From a virus (lineage: Duplodnaviria > Heunggongvirae > Uroviricota > Caudoviricetes): 64,000 nucleotides of DNA. Location: the IMG/VR virus record IMGVR_UViG_2713896798_000008; one strand, given 5' to 3'. Below are positions 23,234 to 59,620 of the stretch, piece by piece (positions within the stretch are counted from its first letter, which is position 1; every line of letters starts with the position of its first letter). Both the position numbers and the translations under genes were made by a program. The notes under the pieces were generated by a model. The model saw only the letters and a program-made list of their open reading frames with translations. It did no database searches and had not been told where the DNA came from.

Positions 23234-23348
23234 CAGTTTTCTCTGCTGACGCAGCAGGTGCCAGTTGTTCAGGCTGGCGTGCGAATTGTAAACCAGAATG
23301 CAAGGAAAAAACAAAACCCGCCGAAGCGGGTTTTCATTGGAAGCACCT

Positions 23349-23834
23349 TTAGTTTTGCTGTTCTATTTTAAGCTTGATAGTTTCATACAAAACAATAGTT
23401 GCGCCTGTTTTACATAATTCCCGGCTGTCATATGCACGAGACCAATAACACAACCAGTTCTCGAGATCTTCTCGAGTATAGGTTTTGCAGGCCAGTCCCT
23501 CTGCCATTTCCACGATTTCATCGCCTGGTGCTGTTAACTCATAGCCATTCAACAACAAGAAGACGTAACCAGCCATCATAGCTGTTCGTTTGTTCGCATT
23601 CGCAAACGGATGATTCTGAATCAGACTTTCAATCAATACCGATGCCAGTACAAACATGTCATTGATCTGTTTATACCATCGAACCATGCTGGGACGGGCC
23701 TGAGAAGAACTTAAGTTATCTGGACTCAGAACACCAACGGGTTCATCTGGCGTCTGTAATTCAATTAGGGAACGATTGATTTCAACAAGATCATCAACCG
23801 TAAGGTAATGCACTCCTTCAACAATCTCAGCCAT
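23349..23834 (-). CDS. Doc/Fic-family toxin-like protein
   Basis: HPFANANKRTA matches the Doc-type Fic motif HxFx(D/N)(A/G)NKR; C-terminal extension; start probably MAEIVEGVHYL. Confidence 0.7.
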   Translation of the reverse strand: MAEIVEGVHYLTVDDLVEINRSLIELQTPDEPVGVLSPDNLSSSQARPSMVRWYKQINDMFVLASVLIESLIQNHPFANANKRTAMMAGYVFLLLNGYELTAPGDEIVEMAEGLACKTYTREDLENWLCYWSRAYDSRELCKTGATIVLYETIKLKIEQQN

Positions 23835-23852
23835 AGAGCACAATACCCATCA

Positions 23853-24032
23853 TTACACTTTTGAAAGTTCTTCCATTGCCTTCTCGTAACGAGAAAAACC
23901 GAAATCGAAAGCATTTTTCACCTGCTCACGATGAGTGCAGTTTTCATCAATCGCCGGGCGAGGGGCTGCCACAACTCGTTTGTCGCGAGGCGGAATATTT
24001 AGCCGTGTGTGTTTCTTGAGTGCGTAGCTCAT
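23853..24032 (-). CDS. Small protein upstream of Doc-like gene (candidate antitoxin)
   Basis: 59-aa ORF from Met with AAGGGAAA SD; stop 10 bp before Doc-like ORF; palindrome TTAGATTAGTCTAA at 24106-24119 upstream. Confidence 0.4.
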   Translation of the reverse strand: MSYALKKHTRLNIPPRDKRVVAAPRPAIDENCTHREQVKNAFDFGFSRYEKAMEELSKV

Positions 24033-24240
24033 CTTGTCGTTTCCCTTGAAGTTCTTTTGGCAAGGCCAACGCACCAACCTGGCGCGTAATTAATGGTGTA
24101 GTACTAAGGTTAGATTAGTCTAATGCGGATAAAAATTTTTAGCTACCAAAACGACACTTTTGGTTCCTCCACCCCAATGTTAAAATAAGCCATCCGCCCC
24201 GCTCTCTTACTGGCGGATTCGTAAGCTATATAAATCAAAG

Positions 24241-24278
24241 ATCCCGGCTCATGTTTGTGTCGGGATCTTTTTTTTACG
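24241..24278 (+). terminator. Intrinsic terminator on plus strand (hairpin plus T8)
   Basis: GATCCCGGC..GTCGGGATC stem followed by TTTTTTTT; flanking genes are minus strand. Confidence 0.45.
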
Positions 24279-28954: not shown

Positions 28955-29380
28955 TTAGTGCATCACCACGGCATTTCCTGCCGGGCCGCCGCGATTCATC
29001 TGGTCATACAAAACAACCGCTGACGCAACAAAATCGTCGACATCTTTCACCAGCCGATCCCGCCGTTCGACGATCTCACGGTAATACTCAGAACTGTGGC
29101 TGCGCATACGGGCCACCAGCAAAGGCGGCATCGCCTTTTCGATCGCTGGTAACAGAGCCTGAATTTTTTCAACAGCATCAGGGGTGTCTTTATCCAGCCA
29201 ACGGAAAATTTTCTGGGTATTACGGGCCAGGGCTTCCGGATGACTGTCGTCGTACAGTTCCGGGAACGTCATCCCCAGCTCGAAATACGCTTTGGTAATT
29301 TTCGCAGCCGGTACTTTTTCGCCGTCCGGATGCGCCCAGGCATTCATCGCCATGCGGATGTGTTCATGCTTGATTTTCAT
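28955..29380 (-). CDS. YdaT-like/CII-like early regulator
   Basis: 141-aa ORF MKIKHEHI..., Rac YdaT-like; position after cro-like gene. Confidence 0.6.
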   Translation of the reverse strand: MKIKHEHIRMAMNAWAHPDGEKVPAAKITKAYFELGMTFPELYDDSHPEALARNTQKIFRWLDKDTPDAVEKIQALLPAIEKAMPPLLVARMRSHSSEYYREIVERRDRLVKDVDDFVASAVVLYDQMNRGGPAGNAVVMH

Positions 29381-30980: not shown

Positions 30981-31163
30981 AAAGTGAATTTTGTGATGCG
31001 GTGAATGCGGCTATGCGCACGCGGAACAGTTAAAACCGTAAAGTGGTATTTTACGGGGCGCAACGGGCATCCTTCTGTATTCCGACGTTAATTGTTAACT
31101 GGTTAACGTCACCTGGAGGCACCAGGCGCCGCATCAACAAAATTCATTGTTGAGGACGCGATA

Positions 31164-31352
31164 ATGGAAACGTCACTACCAAACGTTAATACGTCTGAAG
31201 GGTGTTTTGATATTGGTATTCTGCTCAGTAACCGGGAGTTTACTGAAGATGCCATTAAGATGAGAAAATATGAGCCTTATCTTCTCAATGATAATTCCAT
31301 ACTTTCCCGAATTGCTCTTCTTGAACTTGGTATTTTCGGAGAACGTCAATGA
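31164..31352 (+). CDS. dicB: Cell division inhibitor DicB-like
   Basis: 62-aa ORF METSLPNVNTSEGCFDIGILLSN.EFTEDAIKMRK, close to K-12 DicB. Confidence 0.7.
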   Translation: METSLPNVNTSEGCFDIGILLSNREFTEDAIKMRKYEPYLLNDNSILSRIALLELGIFGERQ

Positions 31353-48450: not shown

Positions 48451-48702
48451 TTATTCTCCTGAAAAAGCAGAAAAGCCAGCTTTTATTCCGATCTCTTTCA
48501 ATGCCTGTAATGAAGTGACAAACTCACCTTCGCGCAAGATAAATCCGTCCGTGACCCGAGCATCCACAAAATTAATTAACGCAGCCCCATTCTTTCGCAA
48601 ACACATAATGCGGTAATGACTAACAAGATTTCCATTTTCAACGCACACAGCATAGAGGCCATCTTCACAAAAAATTTTACGCAGTTCTTCGATGTTCATC
48701 AT
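48451..48702 (-). CDS. Hypothetical protein
   Basis: 83-aa ORF between rem-like gene and hokD. Confidence 0.4.
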   Translation of the reverse strand: MMNIEELRKIFCEDGLYAVCVENGNLVSHYRIMCLRKNGAALINFVDARVTDGFILREGEFVTSLQALKEIGIKAGFSAFSGE

Positions 48703-48918
48703 CAGAATCCTTCCGGATAATTAGCTCTCCCCTTTAAGGGACCATCCCTCTTATCCCTGCGCGCTACTTAAGTATTTTTGATTCTATTCCGGCACCGTCC
48801 AGAACTTCAAACGCGTTGAAAATAAAAACAAAAACCCGCCGAAGCGGGTTAAGTGCGGGTGCGTTGAGGATGCCTGCCACATCAGAGGTGGCGAGGGATT
48901 TCTCCCCCGCCGGGTCTC

Positions 48919-49074
48919 TTACTCCTCAGGTTCGTAAGCTGTGAAGACAGCGACCTCCGTCTGGCCGGTTCGGATTCGTACCTCGCAGAGGTCTTTCCTC
49001 GTTACCAGTGCCGTCACTATGACGGTTAAACAGATGACGATCAGGGCGATTAACATCGCCTTTTGCTGCTTCAT
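48919..49074 (-). CDS. hokD: Hok-family small membrane toxin (HokD/RelF-like)
   Basis: Not in ORF track (51 aa): MKQQKAMLIALIVICLTVIVTALVTRKDLCEVRIRTGQTEVAVFTAYEPEE. Confidence 0.8.
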   Translation of the reverse strand: MKQQKAMLIALIVICLTVIVTALVTRKDLCEVRIRTGQTEVAVFTAYEPEE

Positions 49075-49145: not shown

Positions 49146-49433
49146 TCAGAGAATGCGTTTGACCGCCTCGCTATATACTTCCGAGCGTTCTCTTTTCCCA
49201 ACAGAAATCACGAAAACGACAACTTTCTCGTCTATAACCTGGTATACAAGGCGATAGCCTGAAGACCGGAGCTTAATCTTGTAACAATCAGGCATACCAC
49301 GGAGCTTGTTTGCTTCAATCCGGGGTGACTCAAGTACTTCAACCAGCTTCTTTTTCAACTGTTCACGTACCGTCGAGCCCAGCTTTCGCCATTCCTTTAG
49401 TGCCCGCTCGTCAAAATCCAGAAAATACGCCAT
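49146..49433 (-). CDS. relE: RelE mRNA interferase toxin
   Basis: 95-aa ORF, RelE-like. Confidence 0.9.
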   Translation of the reverse strand: MAYFLDFDERALKEWRKLGSTVREQLKKKLVEVLESPRIEANKLRGMPDCYKIKLRSSGYRLVYQVIDEKVVVFVISVGKRERSEVYSEAVKRIL

Positions 49434-49672
49434 CAGAGTTCATCCAGCGTCACACGTACTGGCTTAGGATTACGAAGCCGTTCTTTCACTATCTCCACAA
49501 GTTCAGCATCTTCATCACTCAGGAGTGTCTGTTTGAACGGCAAGCGTTCATTGTCAGCGATATACTCGAGCATGAGACGAAGCGCTTCAGAAGGAGTTAC
49601 ACCCATTTTTTCAAGCGCGGCGTAAGAACGCGCTTTAAGTTCATCGTCAATACGCAGGTTAATGCTACCCAT
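49433..49672 (-). CDS. relB: RelB antitoxin
   Basis: 79-aa ORF overlapping relE start. Confidence 0.9.
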   Translation of the reverse strand: MGSINLRIDDELKARSYAALEKMGVTPSEALRLMLEYIADNERLPFKQTLLSDEDAELVEIVKERLRNPKPVRVTLDEL

Positions 49673-49709: not shown

Positions 49710-50154
49710 TATCGCACTACAACATGCTTAGGGCAAGTCACGAAGGAAGTCAGAAAGTAGTCGTAAGAACGGTGATCACTGTCCGCTTTGTGCCAGGAGC
49801 AGCCATTGCTAAGTCCATCCTGTATTGTGCAGGTCAGCTCGTTTTTAAAGAGTCCGGCCATCATCTTACTGGTACAGACACCATATACTTTGTGACGGTC
49901 AGGCTACATATGCACAACTCAACTTATTCATCTATTTTTTGCTTTAGCATGTCAGTGTTGCTTTCTCGTCGGCGGGTGAGCGGTGACCTGACCTGTCGAT
50001 AAAGGAACGTAACACGTTTTATGCAACACCCGCATGCGGCAGAAAATTATTGCCGAACGTTTACCCCTGTCAACAAGCTTTACTTTCTGAGGCGCGCCAG
50101 CCCGCGAGGAAAACAATCTGAACATCAAACAATTAATGACACAAGAAATACGAT

Positions 50155-50181
50155 TAAAGATTTTTTTGTGCATGCCGATAG
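50155..50181 (+). promoter_or_regulatory. Sigma28 (FliA)-type promoter TAAAGATT-N11-GCCGATAG upstream of flxA
   Basis: Matches consensus TAAAGTTT-N11-GCCGATAA with correct spacing, 25 bp upstream of ATG at 50207. Confidence 0.6.
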
Positions 50182-50206
50182 TGCTTTTTTAAAAGGAGAA
50201 ATCTAT

Positions 50207-50248
50207 GTCTGTCACAATTCAGGGAAATACCTCAACCGTTATTTCAAA
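50207..50248 (+). pseudogene. flxA: flxA-like gene 5' fragment, truncated by IS66 insertion
   Basis: ATG with GGAG SD encodes MSVTIQGNTSTVIS then runs into IS terminal repeat GTAAGCG. Confidence 0.5.
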
Positions 50249-50285
50249 GTAAGCGTGCAGCAAGAACCGTATTGACGGGGATGTG

Positions 50286-51824
50286 TTATTCAGTCGGCAG
50301 TGCTACGCGCCAGGGGAGCAGTTCGCCGACCCGGTTTATCGGCCAGTCGGCTATGACGTCAAGGACATAGCGGAGGTAGCTTTCTGGCTCCACTCCGTTC
50401 AGTTTGCACGTCCCGATCAGGCTGTACAGCAGCGCTCCCCGCTCTCCTCCATGATCCGAACCGAAGAACAGGTAGTTTTTGCGGCCCAGACTGACCATCC
50501 GCAACGCATTTTCAGCGATGTTATTGTCCGCCTCAGCCCAGCCATCATCTGCATAGTACGTCAGCGCCGGCCACTGGTTCAGGGCGTATGCGAACGCTTT
50601 CGCCAGTTCTGAGTGTCGCGACAGGGTTTTCATCTTTTCACGCAGCCAGCTTTCCAGGGATTTCAGCAGCGGTTTCGTTTTCAACTGACGTTCGGCAAGG
50701 CGCTGCTCCGCCGTCATTCCCCTTATCTCTGCCTCGATGGCGTACAGTTCGCCGATCCGTTTCAGCGCTTCCTCCGTCAGGGCTGACGGGGTGCGAACGT
50801 GCACATCGTGGATTTTACGGCGGGCGTGAGCCCAACAGGCGGCTTCCGTTATCCGGCCATCCCGGTACAGCTCGTTGAACCCGGCGTATGCATCCGCCTG
50901 CAGTACACCACTGAACCCCGCAAGATGGGTCTGCGGATGGATGCCTTTTCTGTCCGGGCTGTAAGCGAACCACACCGCCGGCGCCAGCGTTGACCCGGCG
51001 TTACGGTCGTCACGAACGTAGGTCCATAACCGCCCGGTCTTCGTTTTCTTATTGCCTGGCAACAGCACCGGGACAGGCGTGTCATCAGCATGGAGCTTAC
51101 CGTCAGTCAGCACATAGTCCTGAAGCGCTTCTTCCAGCGGTGACAGTAGCCGGCAGCATGCATCCACCCAGCCCGACAGCAGTGAACGACTCAGCTCCAC
51201 GCCCTGGCGGCCGTACATTTCAGACTGGCGGTACAGCGGGGTGTGCTCTGCATACTTTGAGATCAGCACGCGGGCCAGCAGCCCCGGTCCTGCGATACCC
51301 CGCTCGATGGGCCGTGAAGGCGCGGGGGCCTGCACGATGGCATCGCACTGAGTACAGGCATGCTTTTCACGTACAGTCCGGATAACCCGGAAGACGCTGC
51401 GCATCAACTCCAGCTGTTCGGCGGCATCCTCACCCAGATAGCTCAGTGAGCCTCCACATTCCGGGCAGCATGACGCTGCCGGCAGCAGCCGTTTTTCATC
51501 GCGGGGGAGTGATTCGGGGAACGGTTTGCGGGTGCGGGTTTGACGCAGCGGGCGCTGCACGGCCGGGTCGTCAACCCGACCGGTAAGGGTATCACTTTCT
51601 TTCTGAAGTGCCTTCAGGTCAGCTTCCATCTGTGCGATACGACGGGAGACTTTTTCGGAGCGGCTGCCGAAGTTCATCCGGCGCAGCTTATCCAGCTGTG
51701 CCTGCAGATGGTCTATTTCGCGTTCACGCTCGTTCAGCTTTTCCAGCAGGGCACGGTTCAGCGCCTCCTGTTCGGCAAGGAGACGTTTCAGTGCATTGAT
51801 ATCGTCAGGAAGTGAGCTGCTCAT
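50286..51824 (-). CDS. IS66-family transposase (TnpC)
   Basis: 512-aa ORF with IS66 transposase features. Confidence 0.85.
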
Positions 51825-51872
51825 ACCGGGTATATTACCAGGCTCATTCAGCGTCGACCAGGATAAAGAGGC

Positions 51873-52220
51873 TTACAACATAGTCAGGGACGTAAGCAGT
51901 CTTTTAGGCTGCCGCCAGTCGATACCTTCAAGGAGCATCGCCAGCTGTGCCGGTGTGAGGAACACTTTGCCATCCCGGGCTGACGGCCAGGCGAAGCGGC
52001 CGCGCTCCAGCCGTTTGGTCAGCAGACACAGTCCATCGCCGGTAGACCAGAGGAGCTTTACCTGACTGCCATTACGCCCACGGAAGATAAAAACGTGACC
52101 TGACATCGGATCGTCTTTCAGCGTCGTCTGCACCTTTGCCGCCAGGCCGTTGAAGCCATTTCTCATATCGGTGATACCGGCAACCAGCCAAATTTTTGTC
52201 CCGGAAGGTAACGGGATCAT
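51873..52220 (-). CDS. IS66 TnpB accessory protein
   Basis: 115-aa ORF MIPLPSGTKIWLVAGITDMRNGFNGLA, IS66 orf2 signature. Confidence 0.85.
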   Translation of the reverse strand: MIPLPSGTKIWLVAGITDMRNGFNGLAAKVQTTLKDDPMSGHVFIFRGRNGSQVKLLWSTGDGLCLLTKRLERGRFAWPSARDGKVFLTPAQLAMLLEGIDWRQPKRLLTSLTML

Positions 52221-52618
52221 CGCTTCAGTTCCTGTATCAGCAGAGTCAGGAGCTTTTCGCTGACATTGCCATTGAAGCGGAGCGTCCCGTGCCGGAACGT
52301 TACCTCACAGCTGATACTGAGGGTTTTCGGGTCCTCTGCGAGCGATTCTGGCTGTTCGGCAGCTGCATCGAGAGTCACAGGAAGTAGCTGGGGGCTCTCT
52401 GAAGAAGGTAATAGCAGCTTTCCCTCGCGCCATTGTTGTCGCCATTTGAACAACAGATTGGCGTTAATGCCATTTTCAAGAGCAAGTTTTGAGATGGATA
52501 TCCCGGGTTCACAGGAGGCAGCAACGAGCTGCTGTTTAAATTCGGGAGGATAATTAGGGCTGCCTTTTCGCCTGCCGGGAGTCACATTTTTCTGCATATC
52601 TGACACTTTGGTTCCCAC
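52217..52618 (-). CDS. IS66 OrfA (HTH accessory protein)
   Basis: 133-aa ORF, overlaps tnpB start. Confidence 0.8.
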   Translation of the reverse strand: MGTKVSDMQKNVTPGRRKGSPNYPPEFKQQLVAASCEPGISISKLALENGINANLLFKWRQQWREGKLLLPSSESPQLLPVTLDAAAEQPESLAEDPKTLSISCEVTFRHGTLRFNGNVSEKLLTLLIQELKR

Positions 52619-52685
52619 TACTTATTTGGTGGACACCACTTTGTCTAATTCGTCAGATTCTGACCAGACGGTTCAGGCTGTACGC

Positions 52686-54248
52686 TTACAGATCAACTTT
52701 CCAGGGCAACAGATCGCGTACCCGGTTTGCCGGCCAGTCCTGGATATGTTCAATGACGTAACGCAGCCACTTTTCTGGCTCCACATTGTTCAGACGGCAT
52801 GTGCCGATCAGCGAGTACAACACCGCCGCATGTTCACCACCGCTGTCGGAACCCGCGAACATCCAGTTTTTCCGGCCTACGGCCACTCCCCGTAAGGCGT
52901 TCTCTGCGATGTTGTTGTCGATTTCCACCCAGCCATTACTGCAGTACACGTTCAGTGCATCCCACTGTTTCAGCAGGTATGCGAACGCTTTTGCCGTATC
53001 TGAGTGACGCGACAGTGTTTTCATCTGTTGCTGTATCCAGTCATACAGTGACTGCATCAGTGGCGCGGCTCTGGCTTTTCTTGCCGCCAGACGCTGTTCT
53101 GCTGAACAGCCCCGGACCTCTGCCTCGATGGCATACAGTTCACCGATACGCTGCAGGGCTTCCGTGGTGATGTAGGTGGGCGCTCTTGCATGCACATCGT
53201 GGATTTTTCTCCGGGCATGAGCCATACACGCGGCTTCCGTTATTCTGCCGGATTCGTATAACGCCCGGTAACCACCGTAAGCATCGGCCTGAAGCACACC
53301 GCTGTAACCGGCCAGGTGATTTTGTGGATGGATACCTTTCCGGTCCGGACTGTACGCGAACCAGACCGCCGGGGGCATCTGTGAACCGGCGTTACGGTCA
53401 TCACGGACGTAGACCCACAGCCGGGCTGTCCGGGTTTTACCGCTGCCCGGCTCCTGGACCGGGACGGGGATATCATCAGCATGGACTTTACCGGGCATCA
53501 GCACATACTGGCGCAGGACGTCATACAGCGGCTCCAGCAGTTCAGCAACAGCACCTGTCCAGCGCCCCAGTGTGGCACGGCTCAGCTCCACTCCCTGACG
53601 ACGGTATATTTCTGACTGGCGGTATAACGGCAGATGGTCTGCATATTTCCCGGTGACAACATGGGCCAGAAGCCCCGCTCCGGCATAACTGCGTGCAATG
53701 GGTTTTGAAGGTACTGGTGCCTGCACGATATGGTCGCACCGGCAACAGGCCTGTTTCGGACGTTGTGTTTCGATAACCTTAAAGGCGCTGCTGATAAGCT
53801 CCAGTTGCTCTGACACATCACATCCCAGAGAACTGAGTTCACCACCACAGGCAGGACAGCATTCCTCTTCCGGCCGGATAACCCGGGTTTCACGGGGAAG
53901 TGAGGCCGGTAACGGTTTACGGGCTGAAGACTGGCGCAGGGCGGATGGCAGTACCGGGTCATATTGCTCACCCAGCGTTTCCGCCATTTCTTCCTGAAGT
54001 GCGCTGATTCGCTCCTGTGCTTCCTGTATCTGCCGTTCGGTTTTTGCACGAAGTTTTTCTGAGCTTTTACCGAACTGCATACGTTGCAGTTTCGCAACCA
54101 GCGCCTTCAGCCGGTTGATTTCGGAAGCATAAGCCGCCACCCGCTGTGAGAGCAGGCGGTTGTATTCAGCCATCTGGCGGATGGTGTCCTGTTGCGTCTG
54201 CAACAGTGCCCGCAGGCGGGCGTTCTCATGAGCAAGTGAGGTGTCCAT
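52686..54248 (-). CDS. IS66-family transposase (TnpC), second element
   Basis: 520-aa ORF, roughly 60 percent identical to copy 1; C-terminus a few residues shorter. Confidence 0.8.
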
Positions 54249-54267
54249 ATCCTCACTTTACAACGGG

Positions 54268-54615
54268 TTATATGCGGATTCCAGCGCGTTCCGTTCGTTT
54301 CGGGTGCTTCCAGTTGATACCTTCAAGAAGCATGGATAACTGAGCCGGAGTAAGGTGCACCTTGCCGTCACGGGTGACTGGCCAGACGAAGCGGCCCCGC
54401 TCCAGGCGTTTGGTGAAGAGGCACAGTCCGTCACTGTCAGCCCACAACACTTTTATCTGGTCACCCCGGCGTCCGCGGAAGATGAACAGGTGTCCGGAGA
54501 ACGGGTCATCCTTCAGGACGTTCTGAACTTTTGATGCCAGGCCGTTAAAGCCATTTCGCATATCGGTGATACCTGCAACCAGCCAGATACGCGAACCTGC
54601 AGGGAGAGATATCAT
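54268..54615 (-). CDS. IS66 TnpB accessory protein, second element
   Basis: 115-aa ORF MISLPAGSRIWLVAGITDMRNGFNGLA. Confidence 0.85.
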   Translation of the reverse strand: MISLPAGSRIWLVAGITDMRNGFNGLASKVQNVLKDDPFSGHLFIFRGRRGDQIKVLWADSDGLCLFTKRLERGRFVWPVTRDGKVHLTPAQLSMLLEGINWKHPKRTERAGIRI

Positions 54616-55292
54616 CAGTGGCTGCTCCCTTTTATTTCGCGGATAAGTGTCTGTAATAACGCCGGCGTCAGTTTACCTTTAAGCCTGAGAGTTCCGGCCG
54701 GCAGAACCAGCTCACAACACAGACTGTCGGACGGTGTATTTATCTGCTCTGGTTCCTGTGCGGGGGCCGGGATTTTATTATCCGGCTCCGGCGTTAACGT
54801 CACGGGAAGCAGTGCCGGCATATTTTTTCCGGAAGGCAGCAGGCCACCTTTCCGGTATTGATGGCGCCAGTTGAAGAGCAGGTTATCGTTGATTCCGTTT
54901 TCCCGGGCGATCTGCGCCACACAGGCTCCGGGCTGTAGTGACTGCTCCACTAAGGCGATTTTAAACTCATAAGGGAAGTTGGGCCGCCGGGGACGTTTTT
55001 TTACCACGGGGGCTTCGGATATAACGGTGCTTTCAGGACGTACGACTGGTACCGTGGAAAATTGTCCGTAAAGGCAGGCATCAAGTTCCTGCTCCGACAT
55101 GCCTGCGGGCAAAGGCCACGAAAGGCCAGCTCTCCGAAAGCGCACGAACATACTACAAACTGTTGATTTTGGTACACTCAGGCGACGCCCGGCCACAACC
55201 CGGGGTAAATGTTCTTCAAAGTGAAGACGTAAAGCTTCAGTGATCCAGGTCCGGTGTTTCATACGATAGTGTCCATTAAAAATGATGGACAT
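54615..55292 (-). CDS. IS66 OrfA-like protein with N-terminal extension (start uncertain)
   Basis: 225-aa track ORF; conserved OrfA core begins near KKRPRRPNFPYEFK. Confidence 0.6.
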   Translation of the reverse strand: MSIIFNGHYRMKHRTWITEALRLHFEEHLPRVVAGRRLSVPKSTVCSMFVRFRRAGLSWPLPAGMSEQELDACLYGQFSTVPVVRPESTVISEAPVVKKRPRRPNFPYEFKIALVEQSLQPGACVAQIARENGINDNLLFNWRHQYRKGGLLPSGKNMPALLPVTLTPEPDNKIPAPAQEPEQINTPSDSLCCELVLPAGTLRLKGKLTPALLQTLIREIKGSSH

Positions 55293-55345
55293 TATTTTTG
55301 TAGAGCCGGAGGAAACAGACCAGACGGTTTAAATGAGCCGGTTAC

Positions 55346-55591
55346 AGACAAATTCAGGTGCTGACTGAAAAGCTTGGGAAAATCTCATCGGAAGAGGGGA
55401 TGACGACACAGCAGAAAAAAGAAATGGCTGCATTGGTACAGAAGCAAATTGAAAGCCTCTGGGCTCAACTGGAGCAGTTGTTAAGGCAGCAGGCAGAGAA
55501 AAAGAATGAAGACGCGACAGTTCAGCCTGATAAAAAAGAAGAGAAAAAAGACGATACAAATACCGCTGGCACCATTGATATTTACGTCTAA
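55346..55591 (+). pseudogene. flxA: flxA-like gene 3' fragment
   Basis: In-frame continuation ...RQIQVLTEKLGKISSEEGMTTQQKKEMAAL... immediately after IS terminus; terminator follows. Confidence 0.5.
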
Positions 55592-55606
55592 GTGACAGCC
55601 GTATTG

Positions 55607-55628
55607 TGGCCCTCATCGGGCCACTTTT
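55607..55628 (+). terminator. Intrinsic terminator after flxA
   Basis: TGGCCC-TCATC-GGGCCA hairpin followed by CTTTT. Confidence 0.5.
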
Positions 55629-56027
55629 CGCCATCAGCCTTTTCTTTAAAGACATATTATCTTTGTATCATTTCTGATAGTTAACATTACAAGATATAAG
55701 TAATGGACGCACTCCCAATTAGTCTATTTAAATCGCCACGAGTTTAACTGACAACCCATGATCAATTATGAATTGCAACTATTTCTGTAGTCACTTTTGT
55801 GGGGACAGTCCACAAAACTGCCAACTTCCGCTTCTTGCTCTTAGCGGACATTAGCATAGGCTATTTACCATAACGCCTCATTACGCGCACCGCCCAGACT
55901 GACTCAGCGCGTTTCTGGCATATCCCCGGTAAAACAAGTAACAAACCACCCGAAAATGAACACCAGAAACGCGACTTAAGGATCTACCCTATGAATGGAT
56001 ATGCACTCAACCGAATCGATCTTGGTT

Positions 56028-57341
56028 TCAATCTTTTTTATCGGGATCAGGCTTCTTTTTAGGTAACTTCGGGGGCTTAACTTGCTGATGACTTTGCGTT
56101 CGGCGCGTAAGCCAGGGATGGTCAGCTTTAGGTTTAACATAGTATTTTGAGCGTAAATCAATACGGGCATTATCCACTCGTTCATGGACACTCTTTTCAT
56201 CATCCAGTGGTATAGGCTCCGGGCCATCAACATACTTTTCCCAGCCCAGCGCTTTCCCGTCATACAGAACGTTAATTTCACCGTCAAAGTTCTCGCATAC
56301 AGTAACAACCGAATGCCTAAGTCGATATCCCCGGCCCTCACTGCGTACCTGAAACGCACTGCTTTTGTACTGGAAAGTGAGATTTTTAGACAGAACGCGC
56401 TTCGCCTGTAGGCTGAAGATATAACCCAGTTCCTCTTCAGAATGGTGCACATCAAGATGAGCATTATCAGTAGTACGAGGCGACGTAGCGAACCGGTTGT
56501 TATAGGCTTCAATAAAGGTCGGCAACCATGCATTTGCTGTTTCAATATCACTGATATTCTGAAGCCGCATTTCTTTGACCAGCCTGTCCTGTAGTGTCTG
56601 ATTGGCGCGCTCTACCCGCCCTTTTGCCTGCGGGCTGTTGGCATGGATTGGCTCGATGCCCAGTGTCTTTATCGCACGAGTGAACTGGGTCAGCTCACCT
56701 TCCCGCTCTGGGTTATTTACCCTGAATATACTGTGTCTATCAGAGTAGAGAGCGAGCGGTACGCCATGATCATTAAGGTAACCCCGGAGGGTTTCCATGT
56801 AAGCCCGGGTTGTTTCAGCAGGCACAAAACGCAACGCCATCAACGCACTGGTGGCATCATCAATGAAAACGATCAGTGTACATCTGGGGCCTCGATTTTC
56901 AAACCAGTCATGAGGTGAGCCATCAATCTGGATCAGTTCACCGTAAGATGGTCGTCGCATGCGGCGTTGATATATACGGGCAATTTTACGACGGCGTTCA
57001 CGCCATAACCCCTCTTCTATCATCCACTTTCTGAGAGTTTCAACGGATAAAGATAAACCGTGTATCTCGCGCAATTTTTCGCACGCAAACGTAGGTCCAA
57101 AATCAGCGTAACGGCCTTTGAGGAGTGAAATTACTGTTGCTCTGAATTCAGTAGAAAAGGAATTATTAGGACGCTTTCCACGTCGGTGGGAAACCAGACC
57201 AGAAGGCCCTTCATTTCTATACCGTTGCACCAGACGTTTAACCTGCCGAATAGAAATGCCAATGCGTGCCGCAGCTTGTTCCTGAATAATCTGAAGTCGG
57301 TGGAGTTCCTTATGACTCATCGTAACAGTCTCTTTGATCAT
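56028..57341 (-). CDS. DDE transposase with integrase-core domain (IS481-like family, single ORF)
   Basis: 437-aa ORF: N-terminal HTH, DDE triad context (IQIDGS, LYSDRHS, SPQAKGRVERAN). Confidence 0.6.
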   Translation of the reverse strand: MIKETVTMSHKELHRLQIIQEQAAARIGISIRQVKRLVQRYRNEGPSGLVSHRRGKRPNNSFSTEFRATVISLLKGRYADFGPTFACEKLREIHGLSLSVETLRKWMIEEGLWRERRRKIARIYQRRMRRPSYGELIQIDGSPHDWFENRGPRCTLIVFIDDATSALMALRFVPAETTRAYMETLRGYLNDHGVPLALYSDRHSIFRVNNPEREGELTQFTRAIKTLGIEPIHANSPQAKGRVERANQTLQDRLVKEMRLQNISDIETANAWLPTFIEAYNNRFATSPRTTDNAHLDVHHSEEELGYIFSLQAKRVLSKNLTFQYKSSAFQVRSEGRGYRLRHSVVTVCENFDGEINVLYDGKALGWEKYVDGPEPIPLDDEKSVHERVDNARIDLRSKYYVKPKADHPWLTRRTQSHQQVKPPKLPKKKPDPDKKD

Positions 57342-57781
57342 GAAAAATCCCCCAGAGAATTGTCTGGGGACATTTTAGAATGGTTCAAAGGGGACATTAC
57401 AGCTTGGTGTTAACAATAGCCTGCTTCTCCGTGCCTTTCGGCACGTAAGAGGCTAACCTACATGTGTCTAGCATGAAATTGGCCTCAGATTAATGTTAAG
57501 CGTCTTGCAGGACGCGTAATGTTAACTGGGGCTTTTCTCTATCTGCCGTTGGTGTCCATGCCCGAGGCAGATAGCCTCAAGCACCCGCAGTCATTCTACT
57601 TAACTAAGATTTCCCCGCAAACCGTTTTTGTCCAGCACAGTAAATATCCAACTAAACCAATGGAGTTCGCTGTATTTACCGCCAGTATTCAATGCACATG
57701 ACCGCCATGAACACCCCTAAAAAAAGGGCATTTATATATCCAAATATTAATATCAAAACATCAACTTTTTCCATATACCTT

Positions 57782-57790
57782 GCTGTGAAG
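57782..57790. repeat. IS1 target-site duplication GCTGTGAAG (left copy)
   Basis: Identical 9-mer at 58559-58567 directly flanking the other IS1 end. Confidence 0.85.
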
Positions 57791-57845
57791 GGTGATGCTG
57801 CCAACTTACTGATTTAGTGTATGATGGTGTTTTTGAGGTGCTCCA

Positions 57846-58121
57846 GTGGCTTCTGTTTCTATCAGCTGTCCCTCCTGTTCAGCTACTGACGGGGTGGTGC
57901 GTAACGGCAAAAGCATCGCCGGACATCAGCGCTATCTCTGCTCTCACTGCCGTAAAACATGGCAACTGCAGTTCACTTACACCGCTTCTCAACCCGGTAC
58001 GCACCAGAAAATCATTGATATGGCCATGAATGGCGTTGGATGCCGGGCAACTGCCCGCATTATGGGCGTTGGCCTCAACACGATTTTACGTCACTTAAAA
58101 AACTCAGGCCGCAGTCGGTAA
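57846..58121 (+). CDS. insA: IS1 InsA
   Basis: 91-aa [26 protein letters not shown]. Confidence 0.9.
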
Positions 58122-58543
58122 CCTCGCGCATACAGCCGGGCAGTGACGTCATCGTCTGCGCGGAAATGGACGAACAGTGGGGCTATGTCGGGGCTAAATC
58201 GCGCCAGCGCTGGCTGTTTTACGCGTATGACAGGCTCCGGAAGACGGTTGTTGCGCACGTATTCGGTGAACGCACTATGGCGACGCTGGGGCGTCTTATG
58301 AGCCTGCTGTCACCCTTTGACGTGGTGATATGGATGACGGATGGCTGGCCGCTGTATGAATCCCGCCTGAAGGGAAAGCTGCACGTAATCAGCAAGCGAT
58401 ATACGCAGCGAATTGAGCGGCATAACCTGAATCTGAGGCAGCACCTGGCACGGCTGGGACGGAAGTCGCTGTCGTTCTCAAAATCGGTGGAGCTGCATGA
58501 CAAAGTCATCGGGCATTATCTGAACATAAAACACTATCAATAA
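58040..58543 (+). CDS. insB: IS1 InsB (expressed as InsAB' by frameshift)
   Basis: 167-aa ORF in -1 frame overlapping insA. Confidence 0.85.
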
Positions 58544-58558
58544 GTTGGAGTCATTACC

Positions 58559-58567
58559 GCTGTGAAG
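58559..58567. repeat. IS1 target-site duplication GCTGTGAAG (right copy)
   Basis: Identical 9-mer at 57782-57790. Confidence 0.85.
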
Positions 58568-58749
58568 ATGATGGGCATACATGATGCGAACAACCAGAAC
58601 GCAACAAACAAAAACTGCAATGCGTTTTTCATTATTCCTCCTACAATCAATGTGCAATTACATTTAAACACACCTCAATTTGGCCGGACATATAAATATC
58701 TAAACCAGAAAAAATCACTTACATAGCGTTACAAACTCTTTAGTCTAAA

Positions 58750-59620
58750 GGTTCATCGTAAAACATTCCCCATACTTATCAGTCCGTTCCGCGCCAGGTA
58801 GCTCATTGCCTTATCTGGCAACCTGTAATCAGGTTTCCGCTTTTTCAGTTGGCTGGTCGTTTAACCGACATAGTTAATCCATTAATCTAGTTGCCGGATG
58901 TTGGTGGATTTTCGCGTTTTAGTTGTTCATAAAAGTGCACAGCTTTAACCAGTTCTTCTGATGTAACTGGGACTGGTGAGGCAGTGAATAAGGCCTGAAT
59001 TTGATAGTTCGGCCTGTCGTTACAATCCTCTTTTTTCGGTACATATTTCCAGTCACCAGACCACTACTTCCCCTGAAAGTCCGTAACGCCTTTTTTCACG
59101 TAGCGATATCGCCATGCCACTGGTTTTGCTTGCCCCGCCGTTTCATGCCCTTCCTGATAATTAATCTCGCTCATTCATCGCCCCACTCATCACAATATGC
59201 TTCGACCGGAGTTTTTCCCGCTTCATAGTCATCACGCTAGGATTCGACATCAGCAGCACTTCCACCGCGTAACTCACCATAGTCCATTAATAGTTCATCC
59301 CGCTCTTCAAAACTGATGTTATATTTAGCTGAACAAAAATCAGCCACTTTGTTCTTCCTCATCGTCTTTTATTTCGTGGTATGAGTAATTGCAGTAGTTA
59401 AAGAAAATTTCTTATGCTCCGTCATGAATTTCCTCAGGTGTTGCGTCATCGTCCACTTCGAATACATCCTCAAAATCTCCACCAGCTATTCCCGTTTCAA
59501 TAATAATTTTGAACTTTCGCATTTCACTACCGCCCTTTCGGGCGGCCTCCTGATGTTCTGAGGGTGCAGAAATCCATCCGGTTAAGGATTAAATTTTATT
59601 TACAGAACTGAATTTAATTA
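58750..59620 (-). pseudogene. Decayed copy of prophage-A nin-region genes (homologous to 24390-25810)
   Basis: Colinear nucleotide similarity with premature stops, e.g. MRKFKIIIETGIAGGDFEDVFEVDDDATPEEIHDGA-stop. Confidence 0.6.

Follow-up and report, generated by a model that had tools for sequence, protein, structure and literature searches.

Class I Fic toxins are AMP-transferases that carry the loop HxFx(D/E)GNGRxxR and are inhibited by a helix bearing the motif (S/T)xxxE(G/N). Doc of phage P1 is said (Castro-Roa 2013, cited in PMC10440598) to phosphorylate EF-Tu. Here, we analyze two adjacent genes in a 64,000-nucleotide (nt) stretch of viral DNA (IMG/VR record IMGVR_UViG_2713896798_000008; hereafter ‘the window’, meaning the whole stretch): one for a 161-amino-acid (aa) protein of the Doc family and, directly upstream, one for a 59-aa protein. 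The window consists of Escherichia coli chromosome, in which a lambdoid prophage (prophage A, ~1–35 kb) adjoins the cryptic prophage Qin (prophage B), and the pair lies on the minus strand of prophage A. In our judgment, the two genes probably form an intact type II toxin–antitoxin (TA) cassette carried as prophage cargo, in which Doc is combined with an undescribed, minimal antitoxin family.

Known Doc toxins are controlled by antitoxins of several kinds. The Phd proteins of P1, Salmonella, and Enterococcus faecalis are unrelated in sequence, and each places a bent C-terminal helix on the concave face of Doc (PMC13034048, PMC9207808). In E. faecalis, this Doc-binding helix comprises residues 52–79 of EFPhd, which has no sequence similarity to P1 Phd (PMC13034048), and the Salmonella system contains a canonical 73-aa Phd (PMC9207808). 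Neutralization of a Doc toxin requires no more than a ‘Phd-C’ element, and antitoxins of a single domain are known (PMC10440598). In more general terms, Makarova et al. (PMC2701414) argued that, where a known toxin shares a two-gene operon with a small conserved gene, the latter very probably encodes an antitoxin.

The present locus shares with P1 Phd–Doc (PDB 3K33, 3DD7) the toxin family and its motif, an antitoxin gene upstream, carriage by a temperate phage, and a predicted neutralizing element that is a C-terminal helix; P1 Phd and the 59-aa protein both end three residues past an aligned Leu. It differs in that the toxin is 35 aa longer and matches P1 Doc over residues 50–115 only, the partner has neither a YefM/Phd-type DNA-binding domain nor significant similarity to Phd (PF02604), and the cassette occupies a slot in the nin region of a lambdoid prophage, whereas P1 is a plasmid prophage. 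The best solved relative of the toxin is E. faecalis Phd–Doc (9VZC), whose 79-aa EFPhd reads a single palindromic operator through a β-sheet DNA-binding N-terminal domain that the 59-aa protein lacks. In PanA(Phd-C):Doc D6 (NetFlax; PMC10440598), a short C-terminal helical element suffices against Doc, as predicted here, but the 59-aa family has no Panacea or other globular domain. AbrB/MazE-type antitoxins accompany Doc in TasA–TasB-type systems, including streptococcal loci (L047–L092, of which L047, L048, L052, L054, and L066 were checked) with Doc relatives 32–36% identical to this toxin; the streptococcal antitoxin has a weak MazE/AbrB-like N-terminal segment (PF04014, E 0.11, below cut-off) that is missing from the 59-aa family. 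Finally, in Fic–YhfG, of which YhfG is enterobacterial (PMC2701414), and VbhT–VbhA, the gene of a small helical protein also lies upstream of a gene for a Fic-fold enzyme; unlike those proteins, the 59-aa protein does not carry the inhibitory motif (S/T)xxxE(G/N), which is absent from its sequence and from the family consensus.

What is new here is the partner family, its strict linkage to the toxin, and a terminator-bounded insertion next to hokD. If confirmed, the partner would represent a fourth antitoxin solution for Doc, after the Phd/YefM-, AbrB/MazE-, and PanA-type solutions, realized in 55–60 residues that offer little beyond a toxin-binding helix and a basic tail. Such a protein would provide a minimal natural system for Doc switch-off and for operon control without a DNA-binding antitoxin, and would give a name to a ‘hypothetical protein’ that ~2% of complete E. 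coli genomes encode, as do prophages from at least 20 gammaproteobacterial genera. Current understanding stands in any case, and the TA kind itself is ordinary.

A Doc-family toxin with a dedicated upstream partner

The toxin gene (WP_000818169.1) spans 23349..23834 on the minus strand. A sequence-only reading of the window had assigned its product to the Doc/Fic family, and the curated thresholds of two profile collections bear this out: NCBIfam TIGR01550 (DOC_P1) matches with an E-value of 5e-37 and 126.8 bits (cut-off 38.65) over 121 of 122 profile positions, and Pfam Fic (PF02661) matches at 1.5e-11 with 45.4 bits (cut-off 24). The protein also matches PHROG 577, ‘Doc-like toxin’ (7e-51), and its PDB matches are Doc proteins only, namely 9VZC (3e-13, residues 6–116) and P1 Doc 3K33 (3.6e-5 with phmmer, residues 50–115). 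RefSeq has already annotated it automatically as ‘type II toxin-antitoxin system death-on-curing family toxin’.

The catalytic loop HPFANANKR (residues 75–83; 23586..23612, minus strand) was read directly from the sequence, within the stretch HPFANANKRTA that had first drawn attention to the gene; H75 to R83 run from 23612 down to 23586. The loop fits the Doc-type wording HxFx(D/N)(A/G)NKR (PMC13034048), its counterpart in an alignment with P1 Doc is HIFNDANKR, and the pattern H-x-F-x-N-[AG]-N-K-R is present in every intact Doc homologue across 35 homologous loci. Toxin homologues form 279 clusters, mostly of 155–166 aa. The ‘C-terminal extension’ ascribed earlier to this protein needs trimming: residues ~120–141 are conserved across the subfamily, and the variable tail comprises the last ~20 aa only. 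The toxin is acidic, with an isoelectric point (pI) of 4.6. By homology with P1 Doc, it would phosphorylate EF-Tu with ATP, bringing translation to a stop.

The partner gene (WP_000119357.1; ATG to TAA) occupies 23853..24032 on the minus strand and encodes what RefSeq labels a ‘hypothetical protein’, a member of PHROG 2208, of unknown function. Its stop codon is separated from the toxin ATG by an 18-nt spacer (23835..23852, minus strand), not by 10 bp as first reported; the spacer shrinks to 9 nt if the toxin starts at an in-frame TTG at 23843, an alternative start that gives a protein of 164 aa. Both open reading frames (ORFs) share one reading frame and are separated by TAA TGA and four sense codons (23835–23855). 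Across the 35 homologous loci, the gap between the small ORF and Doc varies from 3 to 39 nt.

The evidence that ties the two genes together is comparative. A scan for toxin relatives, limited to one genome per species, returned 79 loci. A homologue of the 59-aa protein lies directly upstream of Doc in 33/33 gammaproteobacterial species-representative loci from 20 named genera, detected with a hidden Markov model (HMM) in 31/31 (L014–L044; E 7e-39 to 6e-5) and by eye in two more (L045 and L046). The HMM-detected pairs span Enterobacterales, Orbales, Pseudomonadales, and Oceanospirillales, and paired genera include Serratia, Providencia, Yersinia, Morganella, Rosenbergiella, Citrobacter, Izhakiella, Hafnia, Xenorhabdus, Arsenophonus, Kluyvera, Proteus, Gilliamella and relatives, Stutzerimonas, Pseudomonas, Entomomonas, Halomonas, and Kushneria, with a divergent yet recognizable 55-aa version in Marinobacter. 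The family also occurs in three sequenced phages, with Doc annotated downstream in the two examined. The surroundings change from carrier to carrier: in Pseudomonas phages Sirocco and LPPA56, the pair adjoins the integrase and att site; in Ewingella, it sits inside a myovirus-like tail/baseplate cluster; and on another contig, it lies beside dinI-umuDC. The small upstream partner that the sequence-only reading had proposed is thus a conserved and dedicated family.

Both genes are under purifying selection. The ratio of nonsynonymous to synonymous substitution rates (dN/dS) is 0.05–0.22 for doc, calculated from those pairs among E. coli variants that are divergent enough to estimate (0.07–0.22 for the window gene against four variants), and 0.05–0.09 for the small ORF at a synonymous rate (dS) of ~0.5. 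Decay is asymmetric: Doc is frameshifted, split, or truncated next to an intact small ORF in Proteus penneri (L040), Arsenophonus nasoniae (L041), and one Gilliamella locus (L037), and no intact Doc without the small ORF was found among the homologous loci scanned. This is the asymmetry predicted for a toxin and its antidote, in which the small ORF outlives a decayed Doc and an intact Doc does not occur alone. Strict pairing, selection, and decay asymmetry together identify the 59-aa protein as the cognate partner of Doc.

Two further observations concern the pair as a unit. Between the window and O157 F6294 (L010) or E1316 (L013), the small ORF differs at dS ~0.49 and doc at only 0.05–0.06; the cassette is thus a mosaic, which implies that a recombination breakpoint lies between its genes. 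On metagenome contig Ga0157366_1006901 (L009:859-1286), a 60-aa family member is followed by an unrelated 76-aa ORF and no Doc; it may be an orphan antitoxin or a phage anti-Doc gene.

Sequence and predicted structure of the partner

Members of the partner family are uniformly 49–62 aa long and carry no fused domain. When 1.84 billion representatives were searched exhaustively with a profile, 37 relatives emerged at E<=1e-3, all small and stand-alone; the longer hits have mis-called starts, since the family Met is internal in them. A word-based search with the small protein recovered only 17 close clusters, all from Enterobacterales and without a Pfam domain. Conservation is bipartite: an N-terminal xALKKxxRLxIPPRDK motif is followed by a variable middle and by a C-terminus, H-x-x-QVKNAFDFGFSRYEKAMEELSKV, with the last 24 aa nearly invariant. 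AlphaFold predicts a single helix at residues 34–57 with a confidence score (pLDDT) of ~90 and leaves residues 1–33 unstructured. The C-terminal helix is amphipathic (hydrophobic moment, muH, 0.47; p 0.007), and the protein is basic (pI 9.6), including its N-terminal half.

Searches for known relatives came back empty. The earlier suggestion that Pfam be consulted for both proteins yielded Fic in the 161-aa protein and nothing in the 59-aa one, for which Pfam and NCBIfam together give no match at E<=1. A profile search of the PDB matched no solved structure and no Phd, and the AlphaFold model of the partner contains no DNA-binding fold, the YefM/Phd-type N-terminal domain included. PF04014 (AbrB/MazE/SpoVT) matched 0/10 family members scanned. 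Membership in a known antitoxin family found no support from Pfam, NCBIfam, PADLOC, the PDB profile search, or hhalign. An RNA antitoxin or known small RNA in the region was rejected, as nothing reached the Rfam gathering score. The partner's ‘IPPRD’ resembles the ‘IPxxhR’ loop of AbrB, an impression only.

Several results weigh against the TA reading, or at least against its more specific forms, and they are of three kinds. The first concerns structure and homology. The AlphaFold model of the toxin, built from a 26-sequence alignment, has a mean pLDDT of only 46.6, too low to be of use, and the sequence matches to solved Doc proteins take its place as evidence for the Fic fold. A comparison of the partner with P1 Phd in hhalign gave no hit. 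In an end-anchored alignment, partner residues F42/F46/L56 fall on Phd hot spots F56/F60/L70 with a shuffle p of only ~0.03, using the verified P1 Phd sequence and the hot spots (F56, F/M60, L70) given in PMC9207808. The match of the partner to the streptococcal AbrB-type antitoxin has an E-value of 0.07 in hhalign; the C-terminus of that 78-aa protein (...IFDEYDDVFKALVEK) aligns with that of the partner (...GFSRYEKAMEELSKV) in the same end-anchored register, and the similarity is not significant. The second concerns expression: a scan for sigma-70 promoters, which covered the window and two homologous loci, found no match of >=9/12 upstream of the pair, so that expression in the lysogen, which an addiction or defense role would require, is only presumed, and the cassette has the orientation and position of a delayed-early operon gene, between the replication genes and Q. 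The third concerns precedent: literature searches, by accession as well as by topic, turned up no study that tests this module or a close homologue experimentally, and a paper on a Gifsy defense protein proved unrelated.

With neither the Phd match nor the streptococcal one significant, membership in the Phd family is unsupported. In its architecture, however, the partner corresponds to that portion of Phd which neutralizes Doc, and it likely acts like Phd-C. On this analogy, the helix at ~34–57 would dock in the concave groove of Doc, the site taken by the C-terminal helix of Phd. With no recognizable DNA-binding fold in its N-terminal half, the partner looks like a ‘neutralization-domain-only’ protein.

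It has to be asked whether the 59-aa protein might instead serve Doc in another capacity, as a regulator, a chaperone or specificity factor, or a substrate mimic, beside a Doc homologue that is not toxic alone. The lack of homology to known antitoxin families, a basic N-terminal half with no assigned role, and the narrowness of the family (the 37 clusters mentioned above) would agree with this, yet its place upstream of Doc, its tiny size, the short gap, the strict pairing, and its retention past toxin decay all argue for an antitoxin, as do the match between its single amphipathic C-terminal helix and those of Doc antitoxins (PMC10440598) and the argument of Makarova et al. on small genes beside toxins (PMC2701414). 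We regard such a co-function as improbable. That the module is an inactive relic is less credible still: Qin next door has decayed and some Doc homologues elsewhere are pseudogenes, but here both ORFs and the catalytic motif are intact, the dN/dS values are those of constrained genes, and the E. coli copies described below are preserved at full length.

Cassette boundaries and the cargo slot

Of 5426 complete E. coli genomes, 125 (~2%) carry the Doc module, O157:H7, O121:H19, and O104:H4 strains among them. All of its 129 copies are full length, and six genomes share a 100% identical pair. Across the 125 genomes, the block of nucleotide homology extends exactly from the ATG of the small ORF to the toxin stop. 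On its right-hand side, the cassette is bounded by an intrinsic terminator, found by a terminator scan (AAAACCCGCTTCGGCGGGTTTT followed by a T-run; 23313..23334, minus strand), which is identical to the one after hokD; homology between prophages stops just past it. On the other side, downstream of the preceding nin-region ORF, an inverted repeat that is also present in the minimum-free-energy fold forms a terminator-like hairpin (AGATCCCG...CGGGATCT, then T-rich; 24231..24276, minus strand), predicted to shield the cassette from upstream transcription. Both genes are probably transcribed into one mRNA that would end at the 23334..23313 terminator.

The downstream anchor of the site, a 92-aa ORF followed by a DUF968 gene, was located in 4526 genomes, at ~9060 places. 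The sites sampled tend to be ‘empty’, with hokD, one terminator copy, and the 92-aa ORF (O157:H7 SS52, MB31, and 2015C-3121). The order hokD–small ORF–doc was found in four other sampled prophages (an O157:H7 strain, an O104:H4 strain, M19, and E1316), and in three of the four filled sites, a 20-bp hok terminator sequence (AACCCGCTTCGGCGGGTTTT) flanks the Doc cassette as direct repeats: in E1316 (L013:2856-3720) and likewise in O104:H4 (L011) and M19 (L012). In the window, copies of the hok terminator lie at 23317–23330, to the right of the cassette, and at 48835–48848, at the Qin hokD; prophage A has lost hokD and the left repeat. It is plausible, judging from these repeats, that they serve as a recombination substrate.

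Other cargo at sampled slots includes a 130-aa ORF and, in Qin, rem and relBE. The Qin slot is equivalent in position and holds relB (49672..49433), relE (49433..49146), hokD (49074..48919), and rem (48702..48451), upstream of a homologous block of the 92-aa ORF, DUF968 (ydfU), and an antiterminator; its hok terminator sequence also bounds the Doc cassette. Its toxins, the RelE mRNA interferase and the Hok membrane peptide, are unrelated to Doc, and prophage A has no hokD. The sequence-only reading had placed relBE-hokD in this slot of prophage B, which is correct, and had suspected a variable toxin or defense cargo position. This suspicion is supported: the interval from the nin-like genes to the 92-aa/DUF968/RusA/Q block is empty in some prophages, contains Doc in others, and has different contents in yet others, which makes it a well-defined empty/filled cargo site beside hokD in lambdoid prophages. 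The cassette probably moves as a unit between temperate phages and, in E. coli lambdoid prophages, occupies the slot after hokD and before that block. In O104:H4 2009EL-2071 (L011:3735-4364), the Doc cassette is immediately followed by a convergent pair of a RelE/ParE-family toxin and a helix-turn-helix (HTH) protein, and three toxin modules, hokD included, stand side by side.

Possible roles of the pair and its upstream region

The TA reading leaves room for more than one biological role, addiction of the prophage or host and exclusion of other phages among them. The alternative that survives best, though tentatively, is that the pair serves the prophage as an anti-phage abortive-infection or exclusion cassette: an infecting phage would deplete or displace the labile small protein, and the freed Doc would shut down translation. 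This proposal concerns the role of the pair and is compatible with a TA mechanism. It is favored by the near-exclusive occurrence of the pair in cargo positions of temperate phages (nin slot, int/att, tail cluster), by moron-like flanking terminators, by the rare and patchy distribution among the 5426 complete E. coli genomes, and by a slot that also hosts hokD, relBE, and the RelE/ParE pair of O104:H4. Against it, no model of PADLOC-DB 2.0 matches at E < 0.001, no paper was found that ties Doc modules to phage defense, and the sigma-70 scans yielded no promoter of >=9/12; a defense role is thus unsupported. Within PADLOC-DB 2.0, the Fic loop weakly matches the candidate families PDC-S23/S05 (best E 0.0018, ~45 residues), and the small protein matches none.

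A bolder proposal, unlikely as it stands, is that the partner founds a class of stand-alone ‘neutralization-helix-only’ Doc antitoxins and that the cassette is a phage-to-phage exclusion module that enters the hokD slot by recombination between hok terminators. A partner of this kind, having no DNA-binding domain, would imply that the operon is not autoregulated in the classical manner.

We find it doubtful that the cassette has instead a lytic-cycle function, expressed by antiterminated read-through from pR, in which Doc transiently modifies the translation apparatus, the small protein times its action, and neither addiction nor defense of the lysogen is involved. The delayed-early position and orientation fit this idea, as do the result of the promoter scan and the terminator-like hairpins on both sides, which antitermination would override. 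Nevertheless, other phages carry the pair by integrase/att or among tail genes, outside the early operon, and it persists beside dinI-umuDC, a context that does not look like phage; decay of the toxin with retention of the antitoxin is typical of TA modules resident in lysogens; and a weak promoter-like arrangement is conserved in the hokD-linked versions. In the latter, TTGTGA or TTGTAA and TATGCT or TATCCT can be picked out by eye at a spacing of 18 nt (8/12), whereas the window offers no more than TAATCT as a -10 element.

The 5′ region of the TA cassette (24033..24140, minus strand), where a promoter is presumed, was examined with the sigma-70 scans and by alignment. It contains a near-palindrome, TTAGATTAGTCTAA, with 6/7 complementary pairs, which is indeed present as the sequence-only reading had reported, although at 24110..24123 and not at 24106–24119. 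Its proposed role as an operator fares less well. The window contains the pattern TTAG-N6-CTAA once, where 0.47 would be expected, and 40/100 shuffles contain it at least once; by this test, the near-palindrome alone does not exceed chance, and we rejected it as a statistically supported operator. The TTAG...CTAA arms are nevertheless kept, with a variable center, in five E. coli-type cassettes, and the near-palindrome may simply straddle a putative -10 element. In other genera, it is absent, and other inverted repeats are found 60–95 nt upstream.

Family-wide, upstream inverted repeats are mildly enriched (19/39 loci at p<0.2, five of them at p<0.05), which hints at operators, yet the predicted antitoxin has no DNA-binding fold. 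One such pattern is shared by Providencia and Morganella (L015, L017, L018, L021, and L028), in which a palindrome with 8–9-bp arms lies 61–70 nt upstream of the small ORF. It reads TAATG(T/A)AA-N4-6-TT(A/T)CATTA, with matching changes in both arms between species, and the inverted-repeat site can be written as TAATGNAA-N6-TTNCATTA. This palindrome looks like an operator or an RNA hairpin.

As for the wider context, the early genes of prophage A lie on the minus strand, in the order repressor/cro, YdaT, replication genes, a run of small nin-like ORFs, and the 59-aa/161-aa pair, followed by the 92-aa ORF, DUF968, RusA, Q, a methyltransferase, tRNAs, and lysis genes. Besides Doc, the prophage carries growth-inhibitory cargo in the form of a YdaT-family ‘toxin’ gene next to cro and the cell-division inhibitor dicB (28955–29380; ~31150–31340). 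A 70-aa ‘hypothetical protein’ called by RefSeq on the plus strand (WP_198920792.1; 23159–23371), which overlaps the 3′ end of doc, the terminator, and the 92-aa ORF in antisense orientation, is probably spurious. According to the annotation of SCPM-O-B-7615, a nest of IS66-family insertion sequences (ISEc22, ISEc23, and ISCro1) at ~50000–58900 splits Qin between ydfV and flxA. This strain is the closest complete genome and differs from the window by one insertion sequence, an extra IS5-like ISKpn26 copy that the window does not have.

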